In this document: piece after piece, positions 2,784 to 23,642 of the stretch
How positions within the stretch are numbered: position 1 is the first letter of the stretch
Layout: each line of letters starts with the position of its first letter
Source: Patescibacteria group bacterium
Lineage (GTDB): Bacteria; Patescibacteriota; WWE3; UBA101185; UBA10185
Direction: 5' to 3'
Assembly (NCBI GenBank): GCA_018825365.1
Contig: JAHJEV010000003.1
Span: forward strand, 2,284 to 66,283
Length of the DNA: 64,000 bases
Notes under the pieces: generated by a model
Told to the model about the DNA's origin: nothing
Databases searched by the model: none
What the model saw: only the letters and a program-made list of their open reading frames with translations
Made by a program: the position numbers and the translations under genes

Positions 2784-2885
2784 AACCTAGTAATTTTAAC
2801 AGGTTTTATTACGCTTTTAAATAGTTTTTAAGTGGAAGATGAAAAAGAAAGCCCGATATTTTTTGTATCAGGCTTTCGTCTGGAT

Positions 2886-3458
2886 TTACATGATTCTTGA
2901 TAGAAACTGATTCAACATTTTGCCAGTTTCTTCAGAACTCTTTTTATTCGCGGAGATTATGAGTGACAGTATGTTGTTCACTTCGGATTTTCTCAGCTTC
3001 CTTTCGGGCAGCCTACCAGGGATATCCGGCGAGTACTTCATTTGGAAGTCAAATCTGATGGCCCAATACTTGATCGGATTGAAATAGTAATGAGGCGACT
3101 GGGTTACCTTCATAACGGGACGAAGTGCCAACCCTTTCCCTCTGACCGCCGTCTGTTCGTCTGATTCCATTGTCTCAATGTTGTACCAGGTGGGATGGAT
3201 GAGCCTGGGTATCCAAACAAAGAGAAAACTCCCGATTTGGCACGATTTGGGTCTGGCAGTTATCACGATTTCCGCGTTGCCAACCACGCCAAGGCGCCAG
3301 TGTAGCCTTATGGTGATCGCGCCTAGGTCAATATGGTACCAGTGGCTAAATGTTTCTGAAGGCAACTGCTCCGCGCTTATCAACTTTTTTACTTTCGTTT
3401 TCATTTCTCTGCTCCTCTCTTTCTTTGTATTTTGGTTGTATTTTACACTACGGGTCAA
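2886..3458 (-). CDS. Hypothetical protein (start possibly at the internal Met near 3404)
   Basis: 190-aa ORF filling the gap between gyrA and the DHH gene. No motif recognised. Confidence 0.35.
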   Translation of the reverse strand: MTRSVKYNQNTKKERSREMKTKVKKLISAEQLPSETFSHWYHIDLGAITIRLHWRLGVVGNAEIVITARPKSCQIGSFLFVWIPRLIHPTWYNIETMESDEQTAVRGKGLALRPVMKVTQSPHYYFNPIKYWAIRFDFQMKYSPDIPGRLPERKLRKSEVNNILSLIISANKKSSEETGKMLNQFLSRIM

Positions 3459-4712: not shown

Positions 4713-4885
4713 GTAGTTATGTTTACCAAAAATGTTGACCTTGCCGCAAGGGGGTGGTAAGATGTTAACATTAGAAAGTCTAGAAATAGGCTTTAGAGGG
4801 ATCTGAAAGGATTCTTTTTTTATGACACAAAACCCTCCATGCATTTAGTTACGAGGGGAGTCTGTGAGGGTTTCTGGGGTTTGTG

Positions 4886-6865
4886 TTACATAATATCTAA
4901 ATTTGCCTGTTTAGCGTGTGTGGTTATAAATCTTTTTCTTGGGGCGACCTCTTCTCCCATCAACATTTCAAAAATCTCATCTGCAGCTTCTGCGTCTTCA
5001 GCTGTGATTTGTTTTAGTCTTCTTGTTTCCGGATTCATTGTGGTTTCCCAAAGCTCTTCCGCGTTCATTTCTCCGAGTCCTTTAAATCTTTGAACGATTG
5101 CCTTTTTACCTTCCGCAGTTTTCAGAAATTCTTCCCTATCTCTATCCGTGAATAAGTATCTCTTCTCTTTTCCCCAAGTTGCTTTGTATAGAGGCGGGAC
5201 TGCAACATAAACATGCCCCTGTAAAATCAGTTCCGGCATGTGTCTATAAAAAAACGTCAGGTGAAGTGAGTTTATATGCATTCCATCAGCGTCAGCATCG
5301 GCCATAATAATGATTTTGTTGTATCTTATCTTTGAAATATCAAATTGATCCCCTATTCCGCATCCGATTGCTATAATCATTGCCTTAAACTTGTCGGAGT
5401 CGACAATTTTATCAAGTCTTGCTCTTTCTGTATTTAAAACCTTGCCAAATATCGGAAGAATGGCCTGATAGTTTCTGTTTCTCCCCTGTTTTGCTGAGCC
5501 TCCTGCGGAATCTCCCTCAACAATGAAAAGTTCGCTTCTTTCAGCGTCCTTTTCGGAGCAGTCGGCAAGTTTTCCTGGTAATACTCCCCCGCCCTCAAGC
5601 GCTGTTTTTCTGATAACAGTGTCTCTTGCAGCTTTTGCTGCCATTCTTGCTTTAAATGAAAGGAGATTTTTCTCAATAATTGAGTTTGCATCTTTGGGGT
5701 TTTCATCTAAAAACTGCTCTAAGGCTTCTTTTACGACCGTTTCAACGGCTACTCTTACATTAGTGTTTCCAAGTTTAGCTTTTGTTTGCCCTTCAAACTG
5801 CAATGTTGCTGAGTCTAAGGATATGGAAATTATAGCCGTTAGACCCTCTCTGAGGTCATCTCCTGTAAGATTTAGGTCTTTGTCCTTTAACGCCCCGCTT
5901 TTTCGTGCGTAATCATTTACACAGCGTGTCAAGGCGCTTCTAAATCCTGTTAAATGGGTTCCTCCTTCGATGTTCTTCAAATGGTTTGCAAAGCAGATAA
6001 CATTTTCTCTAAATGTGTCGTTGTACTGCAGTGCAACTTCAACATTAACTTCGTCGTATTCTTTTTGACAGTAAAATGGTTTAGAATTTAAAACTCCGTG
6101 GTTTCTATTCAAGGCTTCCAAGTACGCTTTTATTCCGCCCTCAAAGTAAAAACTGTACTTTCGATCAATTCTATGATCCAATATGTCGAATTTTATTCCA
6201 GCTGTAAGATATGCGTACTCTCTTATCTGTTGAACGAAGAATTTATAATCAAAGTCTATAGTTTCAAAAATAGTTGCATCGGGTTTGAACTGAACGATAG
6301 TCATTGGTTCGTAATTCCACCCCTCGAGATCTATGTTCCACTCAGCATTTTTAAGTTTGCTAAGTTTATTAAGATCCAGCTTTTCAACCGGTCTTATCTT
6401 GTTTCCGCCCTTTTCGTATTCCTGAATTACTGTTTTGTCCCCTCTTTTTGTTATTACCCGAAACCACTCTGATAGCGCGTTAACAACCGAAGATCCAACT
6501 CCGTGAAGACCTGAGGAGACTTTGTATCCCCCGCCGCCAAATTTTCCTCCTGCATGAAGTTTTGTGAAGGCAAGCTCAAGTGCGCTTACACCATATTCCT
6601 TTTTAATATCAAAGGGAACTCCTCTTCCATTATCATAAACCGCAACCGACCCGTCCTTGCAAAATTCTAGTTTGATATGATTGGCGTAGCCACCAATTGC
6701 CTCGTCCATTGAGTTGTTAACAATTTCGGTGACCAGGTGGTGTAATCCTTCCTGTCCTGTGGAACCGACGTACATTCCGGGTCTTTTTCTTACTGGATCA
6801 AGTCCTTCAAGTACTTGAATTTGTTCCGCTCCATATTCGCTTGGGTTTTTAGGTTTATTTACCAC
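4886..6865 (-). CDS. gyrB: DNA gyrase subunit B
   Basis: 659 aa. The GHKL ATPase N-terminus (GLHHLVTEIVNNSMDEA), the Toprim domain and the C-terminal GyrB tail are all recognisable. Confidence 0.95.
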   Translation of the reverse strand: MVNKPKNPSEYGAEQIQVLEGLDPVRKRPGMYVGSTGQEGLHHLVTEIVNNSMDEAIGGYANHIKLEFCKDGSVAVYDNGRGVPFDIKKEYGVSALELAFTKLHAGGKFGGGGYKVSSGLHGVGSSVVNALSEWFRVITKRGDKTVIQEYEKGGNKIRPVEKLDLNKLSKLKNAEWNIDLEGWNYEPMTIVQFKPDATIFETIDFDYKFFVQQIREYAYLTAGIKFDILDHRIDRKYSFYFEGGIKAYLEALNRNHGVLNSKPFYCQKEYDEVNVEVALQYNDTFRENVICFANHLKNIEGGTHLTGFRSALTRCVNDYARKSGALKDKDLNLTGDDLREGLTAIISISLDSATLQFEGQTKAKLGNTNVRVAVETVVKEALEQFLDENPKDANSIIEKNLLSFKARMAAKAARDTVIRKTALEGGGVLPGKLADCSEKDAERSELFIVEGDSAGGSAKQGRNRNYQAILPIFGKVLNTERARLDKIVDSDKFKAMIIAIGCGIGDQFDISKIRYNKIIIMADADADGMHINSLHLTFFYRHMPELILQGHVYVAVPPLYKATWGKEKRYLFTDRDREEFLKTAEGKKAIVQRFKGLGEMNAEELWETTMNPETRRLKQITAEDAEAADEIFEMLMGEEVAPRKRFITTHAKQANLDIM

Positions 6866-7664: not shown

Positions 7665-7778
7665 AAAATAATTTTTGGGGGTTTACAACAATTTCTGGCG
7701 TACCTTATAAACACTACGTCTTATTGAACTTGATAGACATAGTTGTTACCATTTATACTAAGAAAGTTAATCTGCCCT

Positions 7779-9539
7779 ATGACAAAACTTGATAAGATAA
7801 AAACTGTCGCTGACGTTTTGTACGAAAAAAAACTAATAACCTCAGATCAGTTGTCGGCAATAAAATTTGAAAATGTAAACACTGGAAAAAGTATTGAAAG
7901 TCTCATCAAAGAAAGAGGCTATGTAAACGGTGAGAATTTTGCTGAAGCTTTTGGTGAAGTATACAAAATTCCCTACACTACTCTTGTTCCCGGTCAGCTG
8001 GAACCCCAACTTTTGGACATTATTCCGCTTGAAATAGCAAGAAAATACAAAGTAGTTCCTATCAGTGTTGATGAAAAGAAACTTGACCTTGCGATGGTTG
8101 ATCCACTCGACCTTCAAACGATAGATTTCATTGAAAGGAAAACCGGCTTAAAAGTAATTCCCCACATTGTCACAGAAAAAACAATTGACAAGGTATTGGA
8201 AGAGCAAAAAGGAAAAGAACTTGGTGAGGAAATTACAGCTGCAATGGAGGAGATCTCACAGACGACTTTAAAGATTGAAGAAAGTCACGGAGAGTTGACG
8301 GACGCAACAATTAGAGACGCACCTATTGCAAGAATAGTAGGAATGATTTTGGAAACAGCAGTAAAATCGGGAGCCTCTGATGTTCACATTGAACCTGGTG
8401 AGGAGTCCTGCAGATTAAGATACAGAGTCGACGGAATTTTGGCCGAGAAAAGAACTCTTCCAAAGGAAATGACCGAATCGGTGGTTGCGAGAATAAAAAT
8501 TCTTGCCGGAATGAAAATTGATGAGAAAAGAATTCCGCAGGACGGAAGATTCAAAGTTCAGGTTGGAAAAATAGAAACAGATTTGAGAGTCTCTACCCTT
8601 CCTACTATATATGGGGAAAAAGTTGTTATCAGACTTTTGAGGGAACAGGGGGCTGTTTTTACATACAAAGATCTTGGCATGAGGGGGCTTACCTTAAAAA
8701 GACTTGAAGAAATGGTTTTAAAGCCAAACGGAATGATTTTGGTTACCGGACCCACCTCTTCTGGTAAGACTGTTACACTGGCATCCACTTTAGATAGATT
8801 AAATACCGCAAGAGTAAATATAGTAACGGTTGAGGATCCGGTTGAAATTAGAGTTCCGGGTGTAAATCAGGTACAGATTAATGTTCAAGCAGGCCTTACA
8901 TTTGCAACCGGCCTAAGATCTTTCCTTAGGCAGGACCCCAACATTATAATGGTGGGAGAAATAAGAGACGACGAAACCGCTGAGCTTGCCGTACACGCAG
9001 CACTAACCGGGCATTTGGTTTTGTCTACTTTACACACAAACTCTGCTTCAGGCGCGCTTCCAAGACTTATGGATATGGGAGTTGAAGACTTTTTCCTGGT
9101 GTCAACGGTCATAGGCGTACTTGCCCAAAGACTTGTTAGAAAGGTTTGCAAGTATTGCGTTCAGGAATACGAACCTCCGAAAGAAATCGCTGATGAAATT
9201 GCCGCAGTTTTACAGGAATTATCAAAAAATACTGTTCTTATGACTAAAGATCCGGAAAATGCAAAACTTGTAAAGACACTTTTAGAAAAAAACAAACCTG
9301 TTTTATTCAGAGGAAAGGGATGTCCAAAATGCACCGCAGGGTACACGGGAAGAGTTGGTATTTTTGAGCTTTTACAGATGAGCGAAAAAATCGGAGAGGC
9401 GACACTTGCAAAATCTCCGGCGACAAAGATTGAACAGATTGCAAAACAAGAGGGGATGATTACACTTATGCAAGATGGTTATTTAAGAGCGTTGGAAGGT
9501 TCCACGACTCTTGAGGAAGTAATGAGAGTCACAAAGTGA
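7779..9539 (+). CDS. pilB: Type IV pilus assembly ATPase PilB (GspE family)
   Basis: N-terminal GSPII domain, Walker A GPTSSGKT, and a C-terminal tetracysteine (CKYC...CPKC). Start taken at the ATG at 7779; the track's upstream alternative start is unlikely. Confidence 0.9.
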   Translation: MTKLDKIKTVADVLYEKKLITSDQLSAIKFENVNTGKSIESLIKERGYVNGENFAEAFGEVYKIPYTTLVPGQLEPQLLDIIPLEIARKYKVVPISVDEKKLDLAMVDPLDLQTIDFIERKTGLKVIPHIVTEKTIDKVLEEQKGKELGEEITAAMEEISQTTLKIEESHGELTDATIRDAPIARIVGMILETAVKSGASDVHIEPGEESCRLRYRVDGILAEKRTLPKEMTESVVARIKILAGMKIDEKRIPQDGRFKVQVGKIETDLRVSTLPTIYGEKVVIRLLREQGAVFTYKDLGMRGLTLKRLEEMVLKPNGMILVTGPTSSGKTVTLASTLDRLNTARVNIVTVEDPVEIRVPGVNQVQINVQAGLTFATGLRSFLRQDPNIIMVGEIRDDETAELAVHAALTGHLVLSTLHTNSASGALPRLMDMGVEDFFLVSTVIGVLAQRLVRKVCKYCVQEYEPPKEIADEIAAVLQELSKNTVLMTKDPENAKLVKTLLEKNKPVLFRGKGCPKCTAGYTGRVGIFELLQMSEKIGEATLAKSPATKIEQIAKQEGMITLMQDGYLRALEGSTTLEEVMRVTK

Positions 9540-10600
9540 AACTAAATGCAACTCAGATTCTGGAAAAAGTTGTTGATATGAATGCTTCGGACCTTCATGT
9601 GTCTGTCGGTTCAAGGCCCCATGTCAGGATAAATACACAACTTCAGCCTCTTGGGGACTATCCTGTTTTAACAACCGATGATTTAGAATACATCCTTTCC
9701 CAAATTTTAGATGCTAAGCAAAGAGAACTCTTGGAAATAAACAAGGAACTGGATTTTTCAATTGCTCTTGGTCAAAAAGCCAGGTTTAGAATAAACGCCT
9801 ATTTTCAGAAAGGCTACCCAGCAATAGCTTTTAGACATATTCCCCTTGAAGTACCGACGTTTGAGCAACTTCATTTACCCGCCAACCTTGAAACGATATG
9901 TAATTTAAAACAGGGTCTTATCATTGTTGCAGGCCCCGCAGGGCATGGTAAGTCAACAACTATTGCGTCAATGATGGAAAGAATAAATACCACAAGAGCC
10001 GAGCACATAATTACCATCGAAGATCCTATTGAATACATTTTCTCAAGTAAAAAATCATTAATTGAGCAAAGAGAAATGTTTTTGGATACCCATTCATGGG
10101 AAGTTGCTCTAAAATCTATTTTAAGACAGGACCCGAATATAGTTTTTATAGGGGAAATGAGAGACGTGGATACAATGAGATCCGCTCTTCAAATAGCTGA
10201 AACCGGACATCTAGTTTTTACTACGCTTCATACAAACTCGGCCGCTCAAACAGTGGACAGAATAATTTCTTCGTTCCCGGCGGAAAAACAAGGTGAAATA
10301 AAAAACCAACTGGGATCTGTTATCGAAGTTGTTATTTCAGAAAGACTTCTGCCCTCGGCGTCACTGGGGGTAGTTCCTGCTTTTGAAATTATGGTTAATA
10401 CTGACGCAATCTCAAATCTTATAAGAGAAGGAAAACCGCATATGATCGATAACGTTATTAATACAGGCTCTCAGTTTGGGATGATTAGTCTTGAGAAAAG
10501 TATGGCAGAGTTGGTAAAAAGCGGAATTATTACATTTGAAGATGCGATAAAGTTTGCATCCAGGCCAAACGAGTTAAAAAGGTTTGTAGACCGAGAATAA
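9536..10600 (+). CDS. pilT: Twitching-motility retraction ATPase PilT
   Basis: ASDLHVSVG, Walker A GPAGHGKST, and the GEMRD and HLVFTTLHTNSAAQTVDRI motifs. A GTG start overlaps the pilB stop (GTGA). Confidence 0.9.
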   Translation: MKLNATQILEKVVDMNASDLHVSVGSRPHVRINTQLQPLGDYPVLTTDDLEYILSQILDAKQRELLEINKELDFSIALGQKARFRINAYFQKGYPAIAFRHIPLEVPTFEQLHLPANLETICNLKQGLIIVAGPAGHGKSTTIASMMERINTTRAEHIITIEDPIEYIFSSKKSLIEQREMFLDTHSWEVALKSILRQDPNIVFIGEMRDVDTMRSALQIAETGHLVFTTLHTNSAAQTVDRIISSFPAEKQGEIKNQLGSVIEVVISERLLPSASLGVVPAFEIMVNTDAISNLIREGKPHMIDNVINTGSQFGMISLEKSMAELVKSGIITFEDAIKFASRPNELKRFVDRE

Positions 10601-10603
10601 AAT

Positions 10604-11806
10604 ATGCCAATTTTTGATTACACTGCGAAAAATTCATTTGGTAAGTCTATAAGCGGAAGCGTTGATGCAAGATCCCAAGAAATTGCCGTTTCTCTTTTGA
10701 AAAACCAGGGGCTTACGGTTATCGGAATGAATGAAAAGAAAATGTCTTTCATTGATCAGTTCCTGAATTTTAGAGGAGTGCCGAAAGGAGAGACTGTAGC
10801 TTTTACAAGACAGCTTTCTACAATGATCTCAGCAGGTCTTCCAATATCAAGAGCATTGGAGGTTTTGGCCAACCAATCAACAAACAGAAGTTTTAGAAAA
10901 ATAGTTACTGAGGTACTTCGATCTGTTGAAGGCGGTGTATCGCTTTCGATGTCTTTGGCAATTTATCCAAGGGTTTTCAATGAAACATATGTTTCATTGG
11001 TCAAAGCTGGTGAGTCCTCTGGTAAACTGGATTTAATTTTGAAAAAACTTGCGGAAAACATGGAAGCGGAAAGAGATCTTGACTCAAAGTTCAAATCCGC
11101 AATGATCTACCCCATCATAGTTTTTATCGCTATGATTGGGGTTTTCATCATTCTTATGGTTTTTGTCATCCCCAAACTTTCAGAGATGTACACGAATATG
11201 AATATTGAGTTGCCCCTTATCACGAGAGCTATGATTTCGGTCTCCACCTTCATGGTGAGATATGTTTATATCGTTCTCATTTTACTCATAGGTGCGATTT
11301 TAGGGATAAGGTCATTTGCAATGTCAAAAAAAGGAAGAGCAATTATTTCCGAAATTACTATCAAAATTCCGGTGTTTGGAAAAATTACACTTCAAAAAGA
11401 TTTTTCGAGATTCAGTAGAACTCTGTCTTTACTTATAAACTCAGGCGTACCCATTGTTGAATCGCTAAACATAGTCTCAACGTTAATGTCCAGCCAAACT
11501 TTAAAAAATGCAGTTTTAGATGCGGCAACACAGGTTGAAAAAGGCCAGTCACTTTCAAACTATTTCAGAAGTACAACAAAATTCCCTCCCCTTTTAGGCC
11601 AGATGGCCGGAGTTGGCGAGGAAACAGGAAGAATGGACGAAGTTTTGGAAAGGGTCGCGATTTATTATGAAGGTGAGGTTGACAACATGGTTAAGGGTTT
11701 ATCTTCGGCCCTTGAGCCGATAATTCTTGTGATGCTTGGTGTTATGGTAGGGTTTTTGATCATATCGATCATAACTCCTATCTACAAGCTAACCAGTTCT
11801 ATTTAA
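10604..11806 (+). CDS. pilC: Type IV pilus inner-membrane platform protein PilC (GspF family)
   Basis: 400 aa with two GspF repeats and 3 transmembrane segments, located immediately after pilT. Confidence 0.85.
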   Translation: MPIFDYTAKNSFGKSISGSVDARSQEIAVSLLKNQGLTVIGMNEKKMSFIDQFLNFRGVPKGETVAFTRQLSTMISAGLPISRALEVLANQSTNRSFRKIVTEVLRSVEGGVSLSMSLAIYPRVFNETYVSLVKAGESSGKLDLILKKLAENMEAERDLDSKFKSAMIYPIIVFIAMIGVFIILMVFVIPKLSEMYTNMNIELPLITRAMISVSTFMVRYVYIVLILLIGAILGIRSFAMSKKGRAIISEITIKIPVFGKITLQKDFSRFSRTLSLLINSGVPIVESLNIVSTLMSSQTLKNAVLDAATQVEKGQSLSNYFRSTTKFPPLLGQMAGVGEETGRMDEVLERVAIYYEGEVDNMVKGLSSALEPIILVMLGVMVGFLIISIITPIYKLTSSI

Positions 11807-11846
11807 GAAGAATATAATTTATTAACTTAAAGGAGGTGAATAAAAT

Positions 11847-12350
11847 ATGTTATTTCAACCTAAAGAAAAAGGTTTTACGTTAGTTGAGCTTTTGGTAGTT
11901 ATTGCTATCGTTGCTATTCTTGCGGGCGCTGTTTTAATTGCAATTAACCCAGCTACAATGATGCAAAAAGCAAGAGACTCCAGAAGACTTGGAGATATGG
12001 ACACGCTTGTCAAAGCCATGAACTTGGCTATAACAGAGGGTGAGATCACCTTAGCAACTATGGCAGCCGCTACGACTTCAGCACAAGCTACTGCACAGGT
12101 AGTTGATGGTACAGGTTGGATAAGGTTTGCTATACCAGCGACAAAGACTGGCCTTTCGAAATACGTAGCAGCCCTTCCACTTGACCCGACAAACACAGGA
12201 TCGAACGTCTACTCATTCCAGTCAACTTTGACTGATTTTGAGATGGACGCAGTTTTGGAGCATGCTGATAATGCAATAAAAATGACAACGGATGGTGGAA
12301 ACAGCGCTACGAAATACGAAGTTGGAACAAGCCTTACAATCACGAACTAG
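11847..12350 (+). CDS. Type IV pilin (candidate major pilin)
   Basis: Prepilin leader followed by GFTLVELLVVIAIVAILAG. A strong RBS (AAAGGAGGTG) precedes it, and a terminator follows. Confidence 0.8.
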   Translation: MLFQPKEKGFTLVELLVVIAIVAILAGAVLIAINPATMMQKARDSRRLGDMDTLVKAMNLAITEGEITLATMAAATTSAQATAQVVDGTGWIRFAIPATKTGLSKYVAALPLDPTNTGSNVYSFQSTLTDFEMDAVLEHADNAIKMTTDGGNSATKYEVGTSLTITN

Positions 12351-12408
12351 TGATTGGTTAGTGGAGTTGGAATTGCGTACGTAGCCAGAGCTCTGTTTAT
12401 AGAGTCAA

Positions 12409-12444
12409 AGGGGACCCGTATTTGGCGGGTCTCCTTAAGTTTTT
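12409..12444 (+). terminator. Rho-independent terminator after the pilin gene (shared by convergent genes)
   Basis: Hairpin GGGGACCCG-tatttgg-CGGGTCTCC followed by a T-rich run (TTAAGTTTTTA). Confidence 0.5.
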
Positions 12445-12473
12445 ATGAAAAGCCTCAGGTTAATTAAAACACG

Positions 12474-12914
12474 TCACTTCTGGATAATAATTTCTTTCCC
12501 ATACAATTGTTGTTTCACATTATGTTTTATTTCTTCGGAAACGGATTTATTCTTGACAAGTTTCATAATTTCTTTTGGGTCATCGTCAGCTGCTATTCTA
12601 TTTAAATTAACTTTTCCACATTTTTCACAAATGTGCATAAGCATAAGTTCCCCTATCTTTGCTTTCTTCCACTTGCCATCACGGCTTTTTTTGAACGTAA
12701 CTCCGACAGGATGCATCTTCCCCCCACATTTTGAAAGTCTGTCTCCGGTTTTTGTTTCATCAACGTGTTTGCTCCAAAGACAAAATGGGCAATGATTTCT
12801 ATTTCTTGTACCGATATTTCCAATTGCCGAAACATGTTTGCCACAGTGCAAACATTTAAAGTTTTCTTTGATATTGCTTTTCACACTCCAATTATATCTT
12901 AGATTCCTGTACAA
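12474..12914 (-). CDS. RNHCP domain protein (paralog 1)
   Basis: RNRNHCPFCLWSKHVD plus CxxC pairs (CLHCGKH, CEKCGK) form an RNHCP/zinc-ribbon signature. Its start lies only about 8 bp from the divergent pilD start. Confidence 0.7.
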   Translation of the reverse strand: MYRNLRYNWSVKSNIKENFKCLHCGKHVSAIGNIGTRNRNHCPFCLWSKHVDETKTGDRLSKCGGKMHPVGVTFKKSRDGKWKKAKIGELMLMHICEKCGKVNLNRIAADDDPKEIMKLVKNKSVSEEIKHNVKQQLYGKEIIIQK

Positions 12915-12921
12915 TAATTTT

Positions 12922-13806
12922 ATGCAGACATTGTGTTATATTTTTCTTTTTTTAGGCGGCGCTCTTATCGGATCTTTTTTAAACTTGGTTTCTGATCGTC
13001 TTCCAAAGCGTAAGCTGATTATTTTTGGAAGATCCAAATGTGATTTTTGTAACAAACCCCTTGAGCCTAGAAATTTATTCCCTATATTTTCTTTTCTTTT
13101 CCAAAAAGGTAGGTGTTCCTTTTGCAAAAAGAAGCTTTCCCTTTACTACCCCCTTTCGGAGATCTTATCTGGTTTGTTATTTATAGTTGCCGGTTACGCA
13201 TCCAGATTTTTTCAAGTTCCATCATTTGCAACTCTTATTACCTTTATCTTTTATGCCGTTGTATTTAGTTTTTATCTGATTATTTCTCTGACGGATTTGA
13301 AGAAATGTATTATTCCTGACGAAGTTGTCTATCCAGCTATTGGTTTTACTGTTTTATATATTTTATTTTCCAGAGCTTATGATTTTTTGACTATGAAAAA
13401 AGCTCTGTCTAACGATCAACTTGGGGTTTATCTTATAAAAGTTGGATACCTTAATAGTCAGCTTATGTTCGCGCTGAAAAATCTTGGTTTAGTTTTATTA
13501 GGAGCGGTTATTATCTGTTTGTTTTTTATGTTTCTGGTTTGGATCACAAAAGGAAGGGGGATGGGATGGGGAGATGTAAAACTTGGATTTTTAATAGGAC
13601 TTGTTAACGGGTTTCCTTATGGATTTGAGGCGATATTTTTCGGGTTTGTGCTTGGAGCTTTGTATAGTTTGATTTTAATAATATCCAAAAGGAAAACCAT
13701 GAAAGACACGATCGCATTCGGTCCTTTCCTCATCATGGGAAGTGTGCTTACTCTTTTATATGGGGTCAGAATTTTTGATTGGTATACGAGTATAGGGATG
13801 AGGTAA
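12922..13806 (+). CDS. pilD: Prepilin peptidase PilD (A24 family)
   Basis: N-terminal CDFC...CSFC zinc motif, multiple transmembrane segments, and the catalytic DLKKCIIPD and GMGWGDVKL motifs. Start taken at MQTLCYIF. Confidence 0.85.
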   Translation: MQTLCYIFLFLGGALIGSFLNLVSDRLPKRKLIIFGRSKCDFCNKPLEPRNLFPIFSFLFQKGRCSFCKKKLSLYYPLSEILSGLLFIVAGYASRFFQVPSFATLITFIFYAVVFSFYLIISLTDLKKCIIPDEVVYPAIGFTVLYILFSRAYDFLTMKKALSNDQLGVYLIKVGYLNSQLMFALKNLGLVLLGAVIICLFFMFLVWITKGRGMGWGDVKLGFLIGLVNGFPYGFEAIFFGFVLGALYSLILIISKRKTMKDTIAFGPFLIMGSVLTLLYGVRIFDWYTSIGMR

Positions 13807-13855: not shown

Positions 13856-14380
13856 TTAGTTTTTGTCTTTTAGACACTCTAAGTACATCTTCTCACACCT
13901 TATTATCTGTTCTTCAATTGTATCCAGACCCATATTTTCTCTTAACTCTATCAGTTTATCTGAATCCTTTACGGGTAGTAACTCCGTAATCACCTTACCG
14001 TCTTTTTCTTCAGATTTGACTTGGGTTCCGTATATTTGGTAACCGTATTTTCTTAAGCACACTCTATCCTCAAGAAAGGCCACGTCTTTCTTTGATACAC
14101 CGTTTAAGTTTTCTTTCATTAGTTCTAGGCATCTTTCTCTAAACTCATTATCTTTAGTGTGTTGTGCCAGTAACCACGATGCGTGGGCTGCCCTCTCACC
14201 TACTTTGGAAAATGTCGGCCATCCGATTTTTGAAATTATCTTTTTAAGTTCCTTAGTGTTTTTTTCGTCTGCAGTTTCTACATCTTTCCATGAGAAGTTT
14301 GGATTTTTCCTAAGTTTCTGATCCCGCTTAGCCATTTGTAGAAGCTTCGTCTTATTTAAAAAGCGTTTGAACAAATTCAT
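13856..14380 (-). CDS. Hypothetical protein at the distal end of the rSAM cluster
   Basis: 174 aa (KIGWPTFSKVGERAAHASWLLAQH). No recognised motif. Confidence 0.4.
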   Translation of the reverse strand: MNLFKRFLNKTKLLQMAKRDQKLRKNPNFSWKDVETADEKNTKELKKIISKIGWPTFSKVGERAAHASWLLAQHTKDNEFRERCLELMKENLNGVSKKDVAFLEDRVCLRKYGYQIYGTQVKSEEKDGKVITELLPVKDSDKLIELRENMGLDTIEEQIIRCEKMYLECLKDKN

Positions 14381-14456: not shown

Positions 14457-15752
14457 CTAAGACGTTATGACATTTCTATTATAAGTAACTCTCCCGCTTT
14501 CATCCAATAACCACAGTCCCTTGTTCCACTCTCCTGTGTATGGATTGTATGTGCACCGGGGGTAGGGGGACTCCGCTAGACTAAGTTTTCCACCACAGCT
14601 TCCAAACGACAGAGCTCTGCAGTCGAAACAACAATATCTGTATTCGCAGTCTTTACATACCAAAACACTGTCCTTTGTAGATTTCCAAATGTCTTGAACC
14701 TGCTTACGCTCAACAAGGTTTGTGAGGTTGGTTTCTTTGTAATTTCCCAGAATTGTCCCACGAAGGAAGATACAAGGTAGGAAATCCCCAAATTCTGTCA
14801 CAGTCAAGCAGCCCTTAAGGCACGAATTAAAAGACGTGTGGTTACAAAGAGACTCTTTGTTAGTCTGGAAGTTTGGTTCCATCAGACAACCGTATTTAAG
14901 TATGTACTTCATGTCCGGCAAGAGTGTGGAGTTGTTACCCCGACCGGTAGGCCTCAAAGGGTCTATTTTACTAGATTGTATTCCAAGTTCCCTTTTAAAT
15001 TTTAGGGTTTCCTCTATGGTTTCCTGGTTAGCTCTCATTAACACGGTTTCAGCTCTTACTAGAACACCGAGGTTTCTTAACTGCTTTATTACGGCCACGG
15101 TTTTTCTGTGACTTCCGGGAGTTCTGGTAATGTAGTCGTGAATCTTCTCATCATGGGAGTAGATAGTTGTGGCGATTTTCAACCCCAGACTTTTTATTCG
15201 AACGATGTCTTGGCTTTTAACCAGTGTGAGATTACTAAAGATTTCGATACTGTTAAAACCTATTTCTATGGCATACTCCGCTAGATCCAGGACTGTTTCT
15301 TTGTTACTACCCCTGAATAAGAAAGGTTCCCCGCCTATAAACTGACCCCTCTTACACCCAAGATCTCTTGCCTCTTTTATTAATGAGACCCAACCCTCAA
15401 ATCTTATCGGAGTTTGGTTGCAGTAAACATCCTTATTTCCTGCTTCACCAGAATCCACGTAACACTGAATGCATCGTTCGTTACAGCGCGAAGTGCAGAT
15501 TTCAAACCACACAAAGTTCAGATTTGCCTGTCCTTCGTCTTTGGGAAGTTTGCTATAAGAATGCCTAGAACATTTTGTTGCCAAACCCAAGTTTAGAAGT
15601 TTTTCCCAATAGGCAGCATCACTTGATTTATTAGATAATATACCTACCGCTGCCTGGTTTATTGAGTATACGTTTCCGGAGTTTGTATCTAGTATTGCCC
15701 CTCTGTGAACTCCCTTTACTAAATAGACACCCTTACCAAGTTTGTATTTCAT
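14457..15752 (-). CDS. Radical SAM/SPASM-domain peptide-modifying enzyme with N-terminal PqqD/RRE-like domain
   Basis: CNERCIQC is a CxxxCxxC radical SAM motif. The C-terminus is Cys-rich SPASM (CNHTSFNSCLKGC...VCKDCEYRYCCFDCRA...C). The first ~80 aa (YLVKGVHRGAILDTNSGNVYSINQAAVGIL) match the PqqD-like RiPP recognition element pattern. Confidence 0.85.
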   Translation of the reverse strand: MKYKLGKGVYLVKGVHRGAILDTNSGNVYSINQAAVGILSNKSSDAAYWEKLLNLGLATKCSRHSYSKLPKDEGQANLNFVWFEICTSRCNERCIQCYVDSGEAGNKDVYCNQTPIRFEGWVSLIKEARDLGCKRGQFIGGEPFLFRGSNKETVLDLAEYAIEIGFNSIEIFSNLTLVKSQDIVRIKSLGLKIATTIYSHDEKIHDYITRTPGSHRKTVAVIKQLRNLGVLVRAETVLMRANQETIEETLKFKRELGIQSSKIDPLRPTGRGNNSTLLPDMKYILKYGCLMEPNFQTNKESLCNHTSFNSCLKGCLTVTEFGDFLPCIFLRGTILGNYKETNLTNLVERKQVQDIWKSTKDSVLVCKDCEYRYCCFDCRALSFGSCGGKLSLAESPYPRCTYNPYTGEWNKGLWLLDESGRVTYNRNVITS

Positions 15753-15799: not shown

Positions 15800-16564
15800 T
15801 TAGTACTTTTCACTACTTGCTTTGGAGTACTCTGGGTACTTTTTCTTTATTCTTTGAACAAACTGGTAAATATTTTCCTCATCGTTTTTTAAATACGTTT
15901 TCCATTCTTTTAGAATTTTTCTTTCACACGTTTGCAAATGTGTGTGACCTACTTGCATCCCATCACACTTAAAGTAACTTCCTTTCCTGTTTAACCTAAT
16001 TCGCATTTCATTGTCAGCTATTAATTCAACAACCGCGTGTTCCAAATCTGTTTTTATAAAAAAATTGTGAAGATACTCATGAACAAGATAAACCAAGCTA
16101 TAATTTTTCCAATCCTCCTCATGGCCCCAGAATATACTTCCATGGTAGCTTGATCCCTCCCGCACTTTGTTACTAAGGACGTTCACAACAGAGTTTTTCT
16201 CTGGGAGTTCTGTCTTCAAAATATCCATCAACTCTTTATTTATAATTTCTTTGTTTTTATTCCACTGATTTTCGAGCCGTACTTTATAGTCACAAGCATT
16301 TTTATATATTGAGGAGAACTCTTTTGTGGCTAGTCCTTCAGAAAGAATTTGCGTTATGTCAGAGGTTGCTTCTTTTAATACCTTTTTGTAATCTGGTCCA
16401 GAAAGTAATTCATAGTAGTTACCTTGTATTAGTTGATAACCTTTTTTGTATTTTTTCCATAACTTGTTTTGAAGACTTACCCAACTTTTAACTCTATAGT
16501 TAGGGGTTTTTAATAAACAGGTTATGAAAAGTATTTCTTTTGAGATTTTGAAAGTTAAGTCCAT
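15800..16564 (-). CDS. HExxH-motif protein (candidate zinc metallopeptidase; paralog of 21081..21767)
   Basis: LVYLVHEYLHNFF contains HExxH. It lies between the candidate precursor and the rSAM gene. Confidence 0.5.
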   Translation of the reverse strand: MDLTFKISKEILFITCLLKTPNYRVKSWVSLQNKLWKKYKKGYQLIQGNYYELLSGPDYKKVLKEATSDITQILSEGLATKEFSSIYKNACDYKVRLENQWNKNKEIINKELMDILKTELPEKNSVVNVLSNKVREGSSYHGSIFWGHEEDWKNYSLVYLVHEYLHNFFIKTDLEHAVVELIADNEMRIRLNRKGSYFKCDGMQVGHTHLQTCERKILKEWKTYLKNDEENIYQFVQRIKKKYPEYSKASSEKY

Positions 16565-16630
16565 ATTTTATAAAGGTGGCGAAGTTTATGATCAAGCACG
16601 TTTCACAAACTTCGCCTATTTGGTACATCA

Positions 16631-16786
16631 TTACTTTGGATTACAAGTTCTTGGATAACAGGATGGTGCACATGGACCGTTGGGGGCGCAATTTGGATTA
16701 CACCTAGAGGGTCCTTTCCTGTTGTTTGTCACGAGCTTTATCTCTGGTTTCTCACGGTTTTTCAAATCAGTTGTTGCGGGTTTCAT
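16631..16786 (-). CDS. Small Cys/Pro/Asn-rich peptide, candidate RiPP precursor (51 aa, below the ORF-track cutoff)
   Basis: MKPATTDLKNREKPEIKLVTNNRKGPSRCNPNCAPNGPCAPSCYPRTCNPK. A strong SD (AAAAGGAGATCATA-ATG) precedes it. The sequence shows a charged leader plus a repetitive C-x-P-x core with 5 Cys. It lies on the same strand as the downstream rSAM/SPASM enzyme. Confidence 0.55.
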   Translation of the reverse strand: MKPATTDLKNREKPEIKLVTNNRKGPSRCNPNCAPNGPCAPSCYPRTCNPK

Positions 16787-16995
16787 TATGATCTCCTTTT
16801 CTTCTAGCACTTTTCTATCTTTATGTTGTTATTCTATCACTTCTTGTAAAGCTGTGGGTACTTGACACACCATTCCCTTGGGGAACTTCTAATAGATTCT
16901 GTTTTATATTCAGCTCGAGGGGATATTAATTAAAATTGTTATAGGATTTATGGTAGCCAGATTGTCCAGAAAAGATTGTCCTTATATTTTGGTAG

Positions 16996-20189: not shown

Positions 20190-20753
20190 TTAGACTCTTT
20201 TAGCATTTTGTTTCTTTTCTCTATAGTCGTAAAAGATTTGTTTGAGAGTGGCAAAAGAAGTTAAACCAAAGTCATGCGGATCAAGACCTGTACCAAATAG
20301 TTCGAACAACTCCCACTCTCTGTTAGGGTCTAAGCATATTTTTTTAGAATCAGGATCAACAAATATTGTATTATCCTCCAATACTACTTCAGCAAAGGCA
20401 TGACCTTTAATTGGCTCTTTTGTACCGTTTGGATCCAGATCCAACCATCTTTTCGAGATGGTCTCTAAGTACCTAGTGGAGTAACCCTCAGCTCTCATTA
20501 AGGTACAAAAAACTATAGTGGAGTCTGTGCATCCTGTTACGAAGCCGCTTTTCAATATTTCCTCGGCTGTTCGGGTATGAAATAGTTTAATCCAGTCTTC
20601 GGGGCGTTTCTTGTTTAGGTTTTTGACCATATAGCCAAGTACATATGCAATATACTCAATAGGTTTAGTACCTTTCGGCTTTAACTTTTTGGCTATGTTG
20701 CAAATATATTCAGTTTTTATGGTCAGATGACCATCTTCTAAAAATGTAATCAT
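20190..20753 (-). CDS. Transglutaminase-like cysteine protease superfamily protein
   Basis: GCTDSTIVFCTLMRAEGYSTRY with downstream GHAFAEV and D give a Cys-His-Asp core. Start taken at MITFLEDG; the upstream track extension runs into the GC-rich island. Confidence 0.5.
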   Translation of the reverse strand: MITFLEDGHLTIKTEYICNIAKKLKPKGTKPIEYIAYVLGYMVKNLNKKRPEDWIKLFHTRTAEEILKSGFVTGCTDSTIVFCTLMRAEGYSTRYLETISKRWLDLDPNGTKEPIKGHAFAEVVLEDNTIFVDPDSKKICLDPNREWELFELFGTGLDPHDFGLTSFATLKQIFYDYREKKQNAKRV

Positions 20754-20799
20754 GGCGTAAGTATAAGCTGGGTTTTGAGGTATCACAACAAAACCCGGC

Positions 20800-21085
20800 T
20801 TCTTCGAATCTACGCTGAGGCATCGCGTTCTGCGAGGGCTGCCTGCAGCACTTTGATCTTTCCGTCCACGTGCTCGTACATACCGGATCAAACCCTGCAG
20901 AAGGGGGCAATTTCAGAGCACGTTCCATCGCCTTGGTAGCGTTCGTAGGTACAACCGTTGTTGCAGATCTTGGCCCATTTGCATGAGCGCATACTTGACA
21001 CTTTGTCGGCAGTTCGGTACGTAAGCGGGGCCAATCTTGATACTTTTCCTGTGCGAGAATCTCGGTGAGTGGGTGCGCGTTTAGC
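20800..21085. other. GC-rich island in an AT-rich context (function unknown; contains a candidate 34-aa Cys-rich ORF at 20878..20982, minus strand)
   Basis: About 280 bp that is visibly GC-richer than its flanks. Minus-frame ATG..TGA encodes MRSCKWAKICNNGCTYERYQGDGTCSEIAPFCRV (5 Cys) but has no good SD. The plus frame is also open, which is typical of GC-rich DNA. Confidence 0.2.
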
Positions 21086-21767
21086 TATTTGTTAATAACT
21101 CTACAGCGGATCTTAATATTTCATCGGGGCCCACCCATTTTTTGGACATATATAATTCTCGAAGTTTTTTCTCATCGGTGTATCCGGATTGTTCTGGATT
21201 CGTGAAAAAAGTAAGGCTTTCCTTAAGTAGTTGATAATTGTTATTTCCAAGATCTTTTTCTAATTGAGGATAATAATGAAGAAACATAAAATGATTTAAT
21301 TCATGTTTTGCTGTACTCAACTGAATCTGCACAGGAGATTTATGAAGGAAAAAATATCTTTTCTCGAAATTATATGGGCAGATAATATTAGTAGTGATAA
21401 AAGCGGTAACCTCGTCAAAAGGAAACTTTTTATTATAGAAAGTTTCAAGTTGATATATAACTTGATTTCCAACACTTTTCCACGTATCGTTAATTTTTTT
21501 AATATTCCCTCCCATTTCTGATTCTTTTTCCTTGTAATTAAGTCTTAGATACTCGAGTATCCGTCTGGATTTTTGCTCATTAGTGTCTCCGCTGTGAAAA
21601 ACATCCTGTATTTTTTGAGGAAGTCTATTTACTATGGATTCACTTTTGTTAACCTCGCCGTATGAGTATCCGGTGTCTCCGAAAAATCTAGTATAGTTCC
21701 ACAAATCTTTATCGATGGAATATTCAATGTTTAATTTCATAAGGATAGTATAAAAAAAGCTACCCAC
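21081..21767 (-). CDS. HExxH-motif protein, paralog of 15800..16564
   Basis: AKHELNHFMFLHYY contains HExxH. Its size is similar to the other paralog, and it shares an aromatic/W-rich region upstream of the motif. Confidence 0.45.
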   Translation of the reverse strand: MGSFFYTILMKLNIEYSIDKDLWNYTRFFGDTGYSYGEVNKSESIVNRLPQKIQDVFHSGDTNEQKSRRILEYLRLNYKEKESEMGGNIKKINDTWKSVGNQVIYQLETFYNKKFPFDEVTAFITTNIICPYNFEKRYFFLHKSPVQIQLSTAKHELNHFMFLHYYPQLEKDLGNNNYQLLKESLTFFTNPEQSGYTDEKKLRELYMSKKWVGPDEILRSAVELLTNS

Positions 21768-22055: not shown

Positions 22056-22676
22056 CTATTGATGTATTGCCTCAACTAACTCTCCAATTGAATTAAACCT
22101 ATCAAACTCAAGCCCCAGGTCTGTTTTGAAGTTTGAGTAGAAGGATTCCTGGTATCCATTCTCCCAGGGAGATGCTTTCTTGCTCATAGATATTGTTATT
22201 CCAAGATACTTTGCAAAATCTGTGTATCCTTTGCAGTTATATTCCGATCCCTGATCCGTGTGTACCACCTTTGGAAGTTTGTACCCGGTACTTTCAAAGG
22301 CGGAAAGGAGGGCATCAAGCACGAGCTCTTTAGTATGTTTACTAGAGACCGACCATCCCTCAATCTCTCTTGTGAAAAGATCCATAAATGTTGCCAGATA
22401 CATATATCCCTCCTTGTATTTTATATACGTGAAATCCCCCACGTAGGTAATATCAGGAACAATGGGAAAGAGACCTTTTATATGATTCTGATATATTGCG
22501 GGAGGGTTTCTCTCATCTCTTCTTTTCCTTAAGTGTTGTTTTCTTTTGGTAGGCTTAATACCAAATCTTTTCATTACTCTCCTAACTCGTTTCTTACCAA
22601 TACCCAAAGCTAAAGCTACTCTTCTGTGTCCATAGGCAGGATTATCCTCCAGAACAGAAAGTATTTGTTCTCTCAA
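22056..22676 (-). CDS. IS3-family transposase OrfB (integrase core; frame open upstream toward orfA)
   Basis: DDE/rve motifs with IS3 OrfB architecture. It is probably expressed as an OrfAB fusion by a -1 frameshift. Confidence 0.8.
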   Translation of the reverse strand: MREQILSVLEDNPAYGHRRVALALGIGKKRVRRVMKRFGIKPTKRKQHLRKRRDERNPPAIYQNHIKGLFPIVPDITYVGDFTYIKYKEGYMYLATFMDLFTREIEGWSVSSKHTKELVLDALLSAFESTGYKLPKVVHTDQGSEYNCKGYTDFAKYLGITISMSKKASPWENGYQESFYSNFKTDLGLEFDRFNSIGELVEAIHQ

Positions 22677-23102: not shown

Positions 23103-23642
23103 CTAATGGAGATTCTCAGAATATGTGTCTAGTTTAATGGGTACCTCCCATTGGTGTATAGATACACGGTTTGGTATCAACTCCTTCTTAGCCTTTCTAC
23201 CACAATGTTTGGTTCTGTGTTTCTTACCCTGTTTAAGATCTTGATAAAGCTTTTCTCTTACGCAGTACGGGTTTTTATATATCCAGTTATATATCGTTTC
23301 ATTACAGCAAGGAATTACATCGACAGTTTCAAGATCAATACGAAGTTCAATCCTGCCCCTAATGGCATCAGGAGACCAACCGGATTTAAGTTTTTCAATG
23401 ACGTAGGATTGTGTCTTTGAGTCAGATAGTTTAGGTCTTTTCCCACATCTGCCGCGTTTAGTATCATAGTCGATTTGAGCGATATCAAAGAAGTACCCTT
23501 TTGGTGTAGATCTGTTATTAATTTCCCTGCAGATCGTAGATTTATCTACACCCAGTTTTCCGGCTATTGCCGAAACTGTATACTTTTCATCAAGCAATAC
23601 TTCTATTGCTTTCCGATCTGCAACGGTTATATGTTTGTGCAT
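23103..23642 (-). pseudogene. IS30-family transposase, N-terminal fragment truncated by the IS3 insertion
   Basis: HTH regions (TVSAIAGKLGVDKSTICREI, KLKSGWSPDAIRG, ETIYNWIY) run up to IPNRVSIHQ, which normally precedes the DDE domain. The DDE domain is absent. Confidence 0.7.

Follow-up and report, generated by a model that had tools for sequence, protein, structure and literature searches.

Architecture of the Putative Precursor Locus

The window analyzed here is a 64-kb stretch of DNA from a Patescibacteria group bacterium (contig JAHJEV010000003.1 of assembly GCA_018825365.1). At 16631–16786 on its minus strand, denoted (-), it contains a small gene of 51 codons plus a stop codon (ATG...TAA) for a putative precursor of a peptide that is synthesized ribosomally and modified after translation (RiPP). 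On the same strand, the gene is followed by a 66-nt spacer with a stem-loop, the gene of a 254-amino acid HExxH protein, 47 nt, the gene of a 431-amino acid radical S-adenosylmethionine (SAM) enzyme, 76 nt, and a DUF6624 gene. The peptide belongs to a large family, found mostly in ultra-small Patescibacteria, and is very probably modified by the neighboring radical SAM enzyme.

The reverse complement of the precursor interval translates to MKPATTDLKNREKPEIKLVTNNRKGPSRCNPNCAPNGPCAPSCYPRTCNPK, exactly the 51-amino acid open reading frame (ORF) proposed by the initial annotation, which had been made from the sequence alone. That annotation also claimed a strong ribosome-binding site and five cysteines in a C-x-P pattern, and both claims hold. 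The start codon is preceded by gaaAAGGAGatcataATG with the Shine–Dalgarno sequence AAGGAG at 16793–16798 (-), 6 nt before the ATG. Since the 64-kb window has only 11 AAGGAG-N5-8-ATG sites (2.8 expected from shuffles), this is among the strongest Shine–Dalgarno contexts of the window. The cysteines C29, C33, C40, C44, and C49 open the units CNP, CAP, CAP, CYP, and CNP, so that five of five are in C-x-P. When the whole window is divided into stop-to-stop segments in six frames, the precursor is the sole case of at least three C-x-P within 25 residues; none was found in forty local shuffles. As noted by the initial annotation, the 51-amino acid form is not in the supplied ORF track, which shows the ORF solely in a GTG-extended form of 59 amino acids, below the 60-amino acid cutoff. 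The window is identical here to contig JAHJCK010000002.1 of GCA_018813105.1, a Patescibacteria genome from a metagenome. Neither the public annotation of GCA_018813105.1 nor that of a Logan assembly has a gene call at the precursor interval.

The precursor is predicted to consist of a leader (residues 1–28, 16703–16786 (-)) and a core of 23 residues, CNPNCAPNGPCAPSCYPRTCNPK (residues 29–51, 16634–16702 (-)). The boundary between them is tentatively drawn from an S-R-C junction that is conserved in three close orthologues. The leader contains the motif EKPEIKLVT (residues 12–20, 16727–16753 (-)), an instance of the family-wide box E-[E/G]-P-[T/E]-I-x-L-V-[T/S]. [quoted passage not shown]

Coding Evidence from Orthologous Loci

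Orthologous loci, designated herein by L numbers, were reached via the nearest relatives of the two proteins encoded downstream of the precursor. At the matching position, L003 and L011 have a small ORF of 53 amino acids, MKPTTTALKNREKPEIRLVTKSRNAEGASRCRPNCSPNGPCSPSCFPQKCNPS, and the WWE3 loci L005 and L012 have one of 52 amino acids, MDTAKKPSTKEEKPEILLVTDVSEVNKTTSRCSPDVGNGCSPNCIPQCAPKQ. Between the precursors of the window and L003, 23 of the 38 nucleotide differences fall on codon position 3, the dN/dS ratio is 0.136, and the codons for Cys (TGC/TGT) and Pro (CCN) drift synonymously. The sole insertion or deletion is 6 nt long and in-frame. The Shine–Dalgarno sequence is kept in all three loci compared, namely, the window, L003 (AAAAAGGAGACTATTATG), and L005 (AAAGGAGCACGTGCTATG). 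Because of the low dN/dS ratio, the third-position drift, the in-frame indel, and the retained Shine–Dalgarno sequence, the precursor ORF is a real gene that codes for a protein and is under purifying selection. The initial annotation had suggested looking in related genomes for a conserved frame whose codons drift synonymously, and the outcome of this check was positive (dN/dS of 0.14, rounded, against L003).

The Probable Radical SAM/SPASM Maturase

The enzyme encoded at 14457–15752 (-) is a 431-amino acid radical SAM/SPASM peptide maturase with a predicted RRE-like domain at its N terminus. It matches PF04055 with an E-value of 4.7e-11 and 43.6 bits, compared with a cutoff of 29.5 bits. The radical SAM core motif CX3CX2C (C90-x3-C94-x2-C97) is invariant in 15 homologues. 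The seven-cysteine SPASM signature C311...G322-x4-C327, C366-x2-C369-x5-C375-x2-C378, C400 is invariant as well. The SPASM family PF13186 matches the homologues P0002 and P0083; the window maturase itself has no match to it at E ≤ 0.01. The best NCBIfam match is TIGR04193 with an E-value of 6e-23, covering the C-terminal SPASM region (residues 296–410).

In the AlphaFold2 model, the radical SAM core is preceded by four short strands and two helices (residues 1–60), for which the predicted local distance difference test score (pLDDT) is 62–91. Foldseek aligns the whole chain to the RRE-containing enzymes SkfB, SuiB, and CteB over 430–440 columns and also to TigE, while PqqE, the anaerobic sulfatase-maturating enzyme (anSME), and ChlB rank lower. 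Because the radical SAM and SPASM domains are combined with an N-terminal RRE-like fold and with whole-chain structural matches, the predicted architecture is that of a leader-dependent RiPP maturase; it does not assign the reaction. The gene with this predicted RRE–radical SAM–SPASM architecture, two genes downstream of the precursor on the same strand, is the strongest evidence for a RiPP and supports the earlier suggestion of an iteratively modified core.

At E ≤ 1e-10, the maturase has 372 relatives. The best 120, the query itself excepted, are 44 to 62% identical to it, and those with names belong mostly to WWE3, Woesebacteria, Roizmanbacteria, Levybacteria, and unclassified Patescibacteria.

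The Probable Precursor Family across 79 Loci

A scan of species-representative genomes for maturase relatives yielded 79 loci, which were fetched. They derive from lineages of the candidate phyla radiation (CPR), Chloroflexota, Bacillota, Latescibacterota, Actinomycetota, and several archaeal groups. In 67 of them, one or more stop-to-stop segments contain at least three C-x-P, some of these segments being off-frame noise. The curated set comprises small ORFs beside the maturase on the same strand, amounting to 45 precursors from approximately 42 of the 79 loci. The division into a leader-like half and a core, which had been noticed in the window peptide, recurs throughout this set.

The leader box was found in 39 of the 45 curated precursors. 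Within these 39, Pro occurs at position -2 in 28, Leu at +2 in 35, and both Val at +3 and Thr or Ser at +4 in 38. The distance from the box to the first cysteine is 6 to 28 residues with a median of 9. In the core, 246 of the 259 cysteines (95%) are in C-x-P, and the +1 position is unconstrained. The +3 position is Asp in 21% and Asn in 16%, and the +4 position is Cys in 22%, Gly in 10%, and Thr in 9%, with Arg outside the eight commonest residues. The spacing between cysteines peaks at 4, and the composition is 25% Pro and 14% Cys. Curated precursors have between 3 and 14 C-x-P units, and an ORF of the more distant locus L056 has 19; such variation in unit number is as expected of an iteratively acting enzyme. 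With EKPEIKLVT, a spacer of eight residues, and five units, the window peptide reads as a typical short member of this family. Most curated precursors directly follow the maturase gene on its strand; the window lineage differs only in that the precursor is upstream and the HExxH gene lies between precursor and maturase.

Database searches do not recover this family. Pfam and NCBIfam scans of the window peptide and nine longer relatives gave only noise at E ≤ 10, and a word-indexed protein search with the window peptide gave nothing. Three phmmer matches of the peptide among 1.84 billion representatives were rejected as spurious, being long tandem-repeat sequences without a C-x-P core or a leader/core layout. 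No description of the family was found in the searchable literature on C-x-P with radical SAM, on grasp-with-spasm, or on CPR with ranthipeptides; the family could figure, uncharacterized, in the atlas of radical SAM RiPPs (JACS 2022).

Several loci deviate from the short layout. In archaeal and some other distant loci, the C-x-P region lies within a larger ORF upstream of the maturase: L054 (3025–3441), L058 (3091–3474), L060 (2704–3210), L063 (3001–3432), L065 (2962–3444), L067 (3171–3473), and L069 (2925–3446), all (+). These ORFs are approximately 100 to 170 amino acids long and end in a charged heptad-like helix (e.g., ...LDKLTAEVEELKKKVGR); five of them cluster as one family. This looks like a different precursor layout, ending in a coiled coil, that serves an enzyme of the same type. 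In relatives from Actinomycetota (Streptomyces, Kribbella, and Nonomuraea), a C-x-P region of 11 to 12 units is in frame with the C-terminal part of the radical SAM protein (L085, 3408–4484; L086, 3360–4445; L089, 3429–4457) and would represent either a candidate fusion of precursor and enzyme or a tail rich in Cys and Pro. The C-x-P units of Streptosporangium (L087, 4204–4467) are in a separate frame segment, which starts inside the last bases of the radical SAM match. The ORF after the maturase in L046 (4748–5293 (+), Deltaproteobacteria) has approximately 12 tightly packed C-[TSA]-P units followed by what, by eye, resembles a peptidoglycan-binding domain (...GYYNGPVDGVWNKETWIAIIEFKRANGLQPNGVV...), a layout that hints at tethering of some members to the cell wall.

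A Cys-free, polyproline-like tail, such as KPPPPKPPPPKPPN or PPGPPKPPGPN, ends many precursors of Woesebacteria, Roizmanbacteria, and Amesbacteria (L019, L022, L025, L026, L029, L032, L039, L044, L045, L071, and L084); the window peptide does not have it. The Anaerolineales locus L033 has one maturase and up to four C-x-P ORFs (2828–3073, 3248–3418, 4827–5054, and 4997–5221), three with a leader box and one without. Two of them overlap in different frames; hence, not all four can be real. Finally, L013, L017, L018, L026, L028, L037, L045, and others include contigs with maturase, precursor, and HExxH genes of typical CPR appearance in records titled 'uncultured Gammaproteobacteria', 'Pseudomonadales', or 'Saccharibacteria'; the taxonomy assigned to such binned genomes may not be reliable.

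The HExxH Partner Protein

Between precursor and maturase, at 15800–16564 (-), lies the gene of the 254-amino acid HExxH protein. It belongs to no Pfam or NCBIfam family, and a PDB sequence search with it gave nothing meaningful. The residues H162, E163, H166, and E186 are invariant in 17 homologues and form an HExxH-x19-E arrangement, in which the distal Glu would be the third zinc ligand, as in gluzincin-type metallopeptidases. The corresponding motif of M1 enzymes is HExxH-x18-E. A fold match to M1 and thermolysin-like enzymes was obtained as well, suggesting a gluzincin-like zinc metallopeptidase fold.

Clustering of the neighboring ORFs of all 79 loci gave two recurrent families. Family A (approximately 283 amino acids) is present in 21 loci and has invariant HEFGH-type motifs; family B, to which the window protein belongs, is present in 14 loci and has HEYLH-type motifs. 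One of the two lies beside the maturase in 35 of the 79 loci, and never are both found in one locus. Because they occupy the neighboring position without ever occurring together, the two families are suggested to fill the same role. Common ancestry was considered and rejected as not demonstrable, since hhalign aligned only 12 columns at the motif with a probability of 0.9%.

Zinc peptidases of the M1 type, among them AplP, cleave off RiPP leaders through combined endo- and aminopeptidase action (PMC10885120), and a survey of CPR ATP-grasp loci described SPASM enzymes together with two zincin families, with precursors often not found (PMC8939145). Given these precedents, the HExxH-x19-E arrangement, the apparently M1-like fold, and the alternation of families A and B, we propose that the 254-amino acid protein is the leader peptidase.

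Another HExxH-type ORF lies approximately 4.5 kb from the cluster at 21081–21767 (-). It encodes 228 amino acids with an HELNH motif and has no NCBIfam match; as a second copy of the partner it was dismissed, as it matches neither the family A nor the family B profile hidden Markov model. It is adjoined by a transglutaminase-core-like protein (PF01841, E-value 6e-5) at 20190–20891 (-).

Putative Transcript Signals and Genomic Surroundings

The stem-loop between the precursor stop codon and the HExxH gene (16578–16616 (-)) has a 14-bp stem and a folding free energy of -20.7 kcal/mol (z-score of -4.26), and none of 200 shuffles was equally stable. L003 retains the stem with two structure-compatible changes (z-score of -5.84). 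In the WWE3 locus L005, the equivalent position is taken by a different sequence, which forms a canonical terminator with a GC stem and U7. A hairpin or terminator is found 3' of the precursor in three orthologous loci. The stem-loop is presumed to act as an attenuator or to stabilize the transcript, so that precursor mRNA would be more abundant relative to enzyme mRNA.

Upstream, a promoter-like extended -10 box, TGATAGAAT, lies at 16831–16839 (-), 45 nt before the ATG. The window and L003 share the block CACCCA.AGCTTTACAA.AA.TG.TAGAATAACA, while the neighboring intergenic DNA has diverged. A strict scan for sigma-70 promoters and terminators gave no site on the coding strand of this region. 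We therefore infer the extended -10 promoter, like the hairpin, from conservation and folding.

The DUF6624 protein is encoded at 13856–14380 (-), 76 nt downstream of the maturase, and matches PF20329 with an E-value of 5.9e-16. Its gene is present in the close relative L003 and absent from L005, and it is not among the recurrent neighbor clusters of the 79 loci, so that its membership in the system is doubtful. Neither it nor the GAF histidine kinase encoded upstream is a conserved partner. The GC content is flat across the region.

The cluster is adjoined by a complete type IV pilus-like gene set at 7743–13806, comprising PilB-like and PilT-like ATPases, a PilC-like platform protein, an N-methyl pilin, and a prepilin peptidase; its synteny is also seen in L003. 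Zinc-ribbon proteins with an RNHCP domain (PF12647) are encoded on both sides of the RiPP cluster, one each. The first lies at 12474–12914 (-) and the second at L001 2995–3285 (-), which corresponds to the window interval between the response-regulator and histidine-kinase genes. Approximately 5.5 to 7 kb upstream of the cluster, the ORFs at 22056–22676 (-) and 23103–23642 (-) appear by eye to be transposase/integrase-like, namely, an rve-type DDE fragment and an IS30-like helix-turn-helix fragment.

Proposed Maturation and Alternative Readings

In the proposed mechanism, transcription of the precursor gene would start at the promoter-like box in front of it, and the strong Shine–Dalgarno sequence would give efficient translation, with the stem-loop after the stop codon limiting read-through into the enzyme genes or stabilizing the precursor transcript. 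Residues 1 to 28 would act as the leader, with EKPEIKLVT binding to the predicted RRE-like domain at the N terminus of the radical SAM/SPASM enzyme. The enzyme would then act repeatedly on the 23-residue core, once per C-x-P unit and thus five times. Most likely, each cysteine sulfur would become bonded to a carbon atom in a residue close by, so that small thioether rings of the sactipeptide/ranthipeptide type would line up along the core. The HExxH gluzincin-like protein would finally remove or trim the leader, probably to the S-R|C junction, and release the modified 23-mer.

That the ORF is a RiPP precursor acted on by the neighboring maturase is highly likely, and we regard as likely also the reading as a whole, that is, a leader-guided precursor, radical SAM-modified cysteines, and trimming by a zinc peptidase. 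A thioether as the modification has about an even chance; it is favored by the conserved cysteines, the SPASM enzyme, its structural similarity to the thioether-forming SkfB and CteB, and the parallel to the repeated C-x3-D units of freyrasin. Several points weigh against these readings. Conservation in the repeat is limited to Cys and Pro, with no fixed acceptor residue (Asp or Asn in 37% at +3), and a thioether to a defined side chain is therefore not obviously encoded. The maturase scores below the curated cutoff for each of its best 25 NCBIfam matches, TIGR04193 included (81.7 bits against 175). A PDB profile search with it finds the generic radical SAM core alone, with TigE (8vpo, E-value 2e-10), a cyclopropylglycine synthase, as the best match; as a clue to the chemistry, this match was discarded because the similarity is confined to that core. 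The window hairpin has no U tract, and the neighborhoods of the 79 loci hold no conserved transporter or immunity gene. Family B also occurs in L007–L010 with neither a maturase nor a C-x-P peptide nearby, and hence it is not dedicated to this system; a decayed maturase in these four loci was searched for by tblastn and not found. No biochemical, transcript, or proteomic data for any family member were found.

HExxH proteins beside radical SAM enzymes in RiPP clusters can be α-ketoglutarate-dependent β-hydroxylases (PMC12636437). The 254-amino acid protein may, accordingly, be an iron- and α-ketoglutarate-dependent hydroxylase acting on Asn or Asp of the core, or else a housekeeping peptidase encoded next to the cluster by chance, with the leader removed by an enzyme encoded elsewhere. 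The protein does not match the model of α-ketoglutarate-dependent HEXXH hydroxylases (IPR026337 / TIGR04267), and we consider this alternative rather improbable. A peptide that is not modified at all, but binds metal or is stabilized by disulfides, with the radical SAM gene nearby by chance, is very improbable. Such a peptide would suit a core with 22% Cys, which is metallothionein-like in composition, and a disulfide knot had been raised in the initial annotation. However, the leader and C-x-P design recurs beside the same maturase homologues in the curated precursors of bacterial and archaeal phyla, the conservation of the N-terminal half is that of a leader box and not of a signal peptide, and the window has exactly one such ORF and exactly one such maturase. 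A disulfide-knotted peptide in particular is unlikely because there is no signal peptide and the leader is of a conserved, maturase-directed type.

For the chemistry, the alternative to a thioether is that the radical SAM/SPASM enzyme oxidizes each C-x-P cysteine at Cβ, to formylglycine or another Cys-derived group, or cross-links it to the proline. Sulfatases carry a C-x-P-x-R motif, which is processed anaerobically by the SPASM-domain radical SAM enzyme anSME. In the family described here, Cys and the Pro two residues later are the sole conserved repeat positions (95%), no acceptor is fixed, and anSME structures are among the fold matches of the maturase (E-value of approximately 2e-8). Conversely, the Arg of C-x-P-x-R is not conserved at +4, anSME lacks an RRE and comes after SkfB, SuiB, and CteB among the fold matches, and no anSME model is among the best 25 NCBIfam matches of the maturase. 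Moreover, most characterized Cys-rich precursors of radical SAM/SPASM enzymes receive thioethers. Oxidation or a Cys–Pro link is, hence, kept as a minority alternative, quite unlikely in itself, because Pro is as conserved as Cys and no acceptor is fixed, whereas the Arg is lacking. The only Cys-x-Pro recognition motif found in the searchable literature is the formylglycine motif of sulfatases (PMC6189696, PMC5870055). The C-x-P repeat might mark a RiPP class with a chemistry so far unseen in peptides, in which the radical SAM/SPASM enzyme recognizes each Cys-x-Pro turn, as anSME does in sulfatases, and turns every Cys into formylglycine or another Cβ-oxidized residue or links it to the Pro; we judge this unlikely. 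If it were true, hundreds of Patescibacteria and some archaea would produce a poly-aldehyde or Cys–Pro-stapled peptide, which might help them to attach to their host cells or to interact with these.

Biological Significance

We rate the compact three-gene set of precursor, maturase, and proposed peptidase as an undescribed and widespread family within the radical SAM-modified Cys-rich RiPPs, with precursors that are absent from Pfam, NCBIfam, and the searchable literature. Patescibacteria have very small genomes and a reputation for few natural-product genes; yet, the maturase has several hundred relatives, the best of which are mostly from CPR. The precursors are largely invisible to current resources, as the window gene is uncalled in the source genome, lies outside Pfam and NCBIfam, and is missed by protein searches. 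The definition of the precursors by the leader box E-P-x-I-x-L-V-T and a C-x-P core could be used as a search model, which is useful for genome mining and CPR biology, and explains why the earlier survey missed precursors in related CPR loci (PMC8939145). Since Cys and Pro alone are fixed, the chemistry may be ordinary, with small thioether rings, or new, and either outcome would fill a gap for radical SAM-modified peptides.

Comparison with Known Systems

The initial annotation had suggested an affiliation with SCIFF peptides (TIGR03973), with which the window peptide shares a length of approximately 50 residues, the richness in Cys, and the radical SAM/SPASM enzyme beside it. This affiliation does not stand: the peptide matches no NCBIfam family at E ≤ 0.01 or at E ≤ 10. 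It has five Cys in 51 residues as opposed to six in forty-five, TIGR03974 is not among the best 25 NCBIfam matches of the maturase, and the home of SCIFF is Clostridia, not Patescibacteria.

GRASP-with-SPASM systems are approached through TIGR04193, the best NCBIfam match of the maturase; however, the match is below the cutoff and restricted to the SPASM region. No ATP-grasp protein was found in the window when all ORFs of at least 60 amino acids were searched by phmmer with the ATP-grasp protein of L068, and at most three of the 79 loci have an ATP-grasp gene. The window core also lacks a Thr/Ser...Asp/Glu pattern that would allow ester or amide links. In the distantly related locus L068, a precursor of this leader and C-x-P design is accompanied by an ATP-grasp gene and a family B HExxH protein; as far as its gene content indicates, L068 links the C-x-P and grasp-with-spasm systems. 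L070 has a nearly identical precursor (MENTTTNIGESQLECTLVTDVSLEDSDCGPDTCPW...), and neither an ATP-grasp nor a family B gene was detected there. In CPR ATP-grasp loci of branches 1 and 2, the leader motif is P-h-h-x-h (PMC8939145), which resembles the P-x-I-x-L-V found here.

The proposed leader peptidase has a counterpart in the AplP-type M1 peptidases that process the leaders of class III/IV lanthipeptides, first by endoproteolysis and then by trimming as aminopeptidases (PMC10885120). The window protein shares with them HExxH and a distal Glu and, apparently, an M1-like catalytic fold.

With anSME, the window maturase has in common that it is a SPASM-domain radical SAM enzyme for which Cys-x-Pro would be a substrate determinant. 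The sulfatase motif of anSME, C/S-x-P-x-R (or, more broadly, C/S-x-P/A-x-R), additionally includes the Arg at +4, and none of the five units of the window has one, CYPR having its Arg at +3. The substrate here is a short, leader-bearing peptide with 3 to 19 repeats instead of a folded sulfatase, and the window enzyme has a predicted RRE-like N-terminal domain and is matched less well by anSME in the fold search.

Ranthipeptides and sactipeptides include freyrasin (PapA/PapB), with its repeated C-x3-D units, thermocellin (CteA/CteB), and the sporulation killing factor (SkfA/SkfB). They are alike in having a short leader, a core with multiple Cys, and a single maturase of the RRE–radical SAM–SPASM (or twitch) type, the type predicted for the window enzyme, whose best structural matches over the whole chain include SkfB and CteB. 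The repeated short Cys units of freyrasin suggest one small ring per unit here as well. Differences are the C-x-P repeat without a fixed acceptor, the distinct leader box, the lack of a match to any curated precursor or maturase model, and a sequence similarity to the solved members that amounts to the generic radical SAM core. Although these classes are defined by their chemistry, with the Cys sulfur bound to the α-carbon (sactipeptides) or to the β- or γ-carbon (ranthipeptides) of an acceptor residue, and the comparison here is drawn from sequence, the system would, by analogy, work like a ranthipeptide or sactipeptide system.

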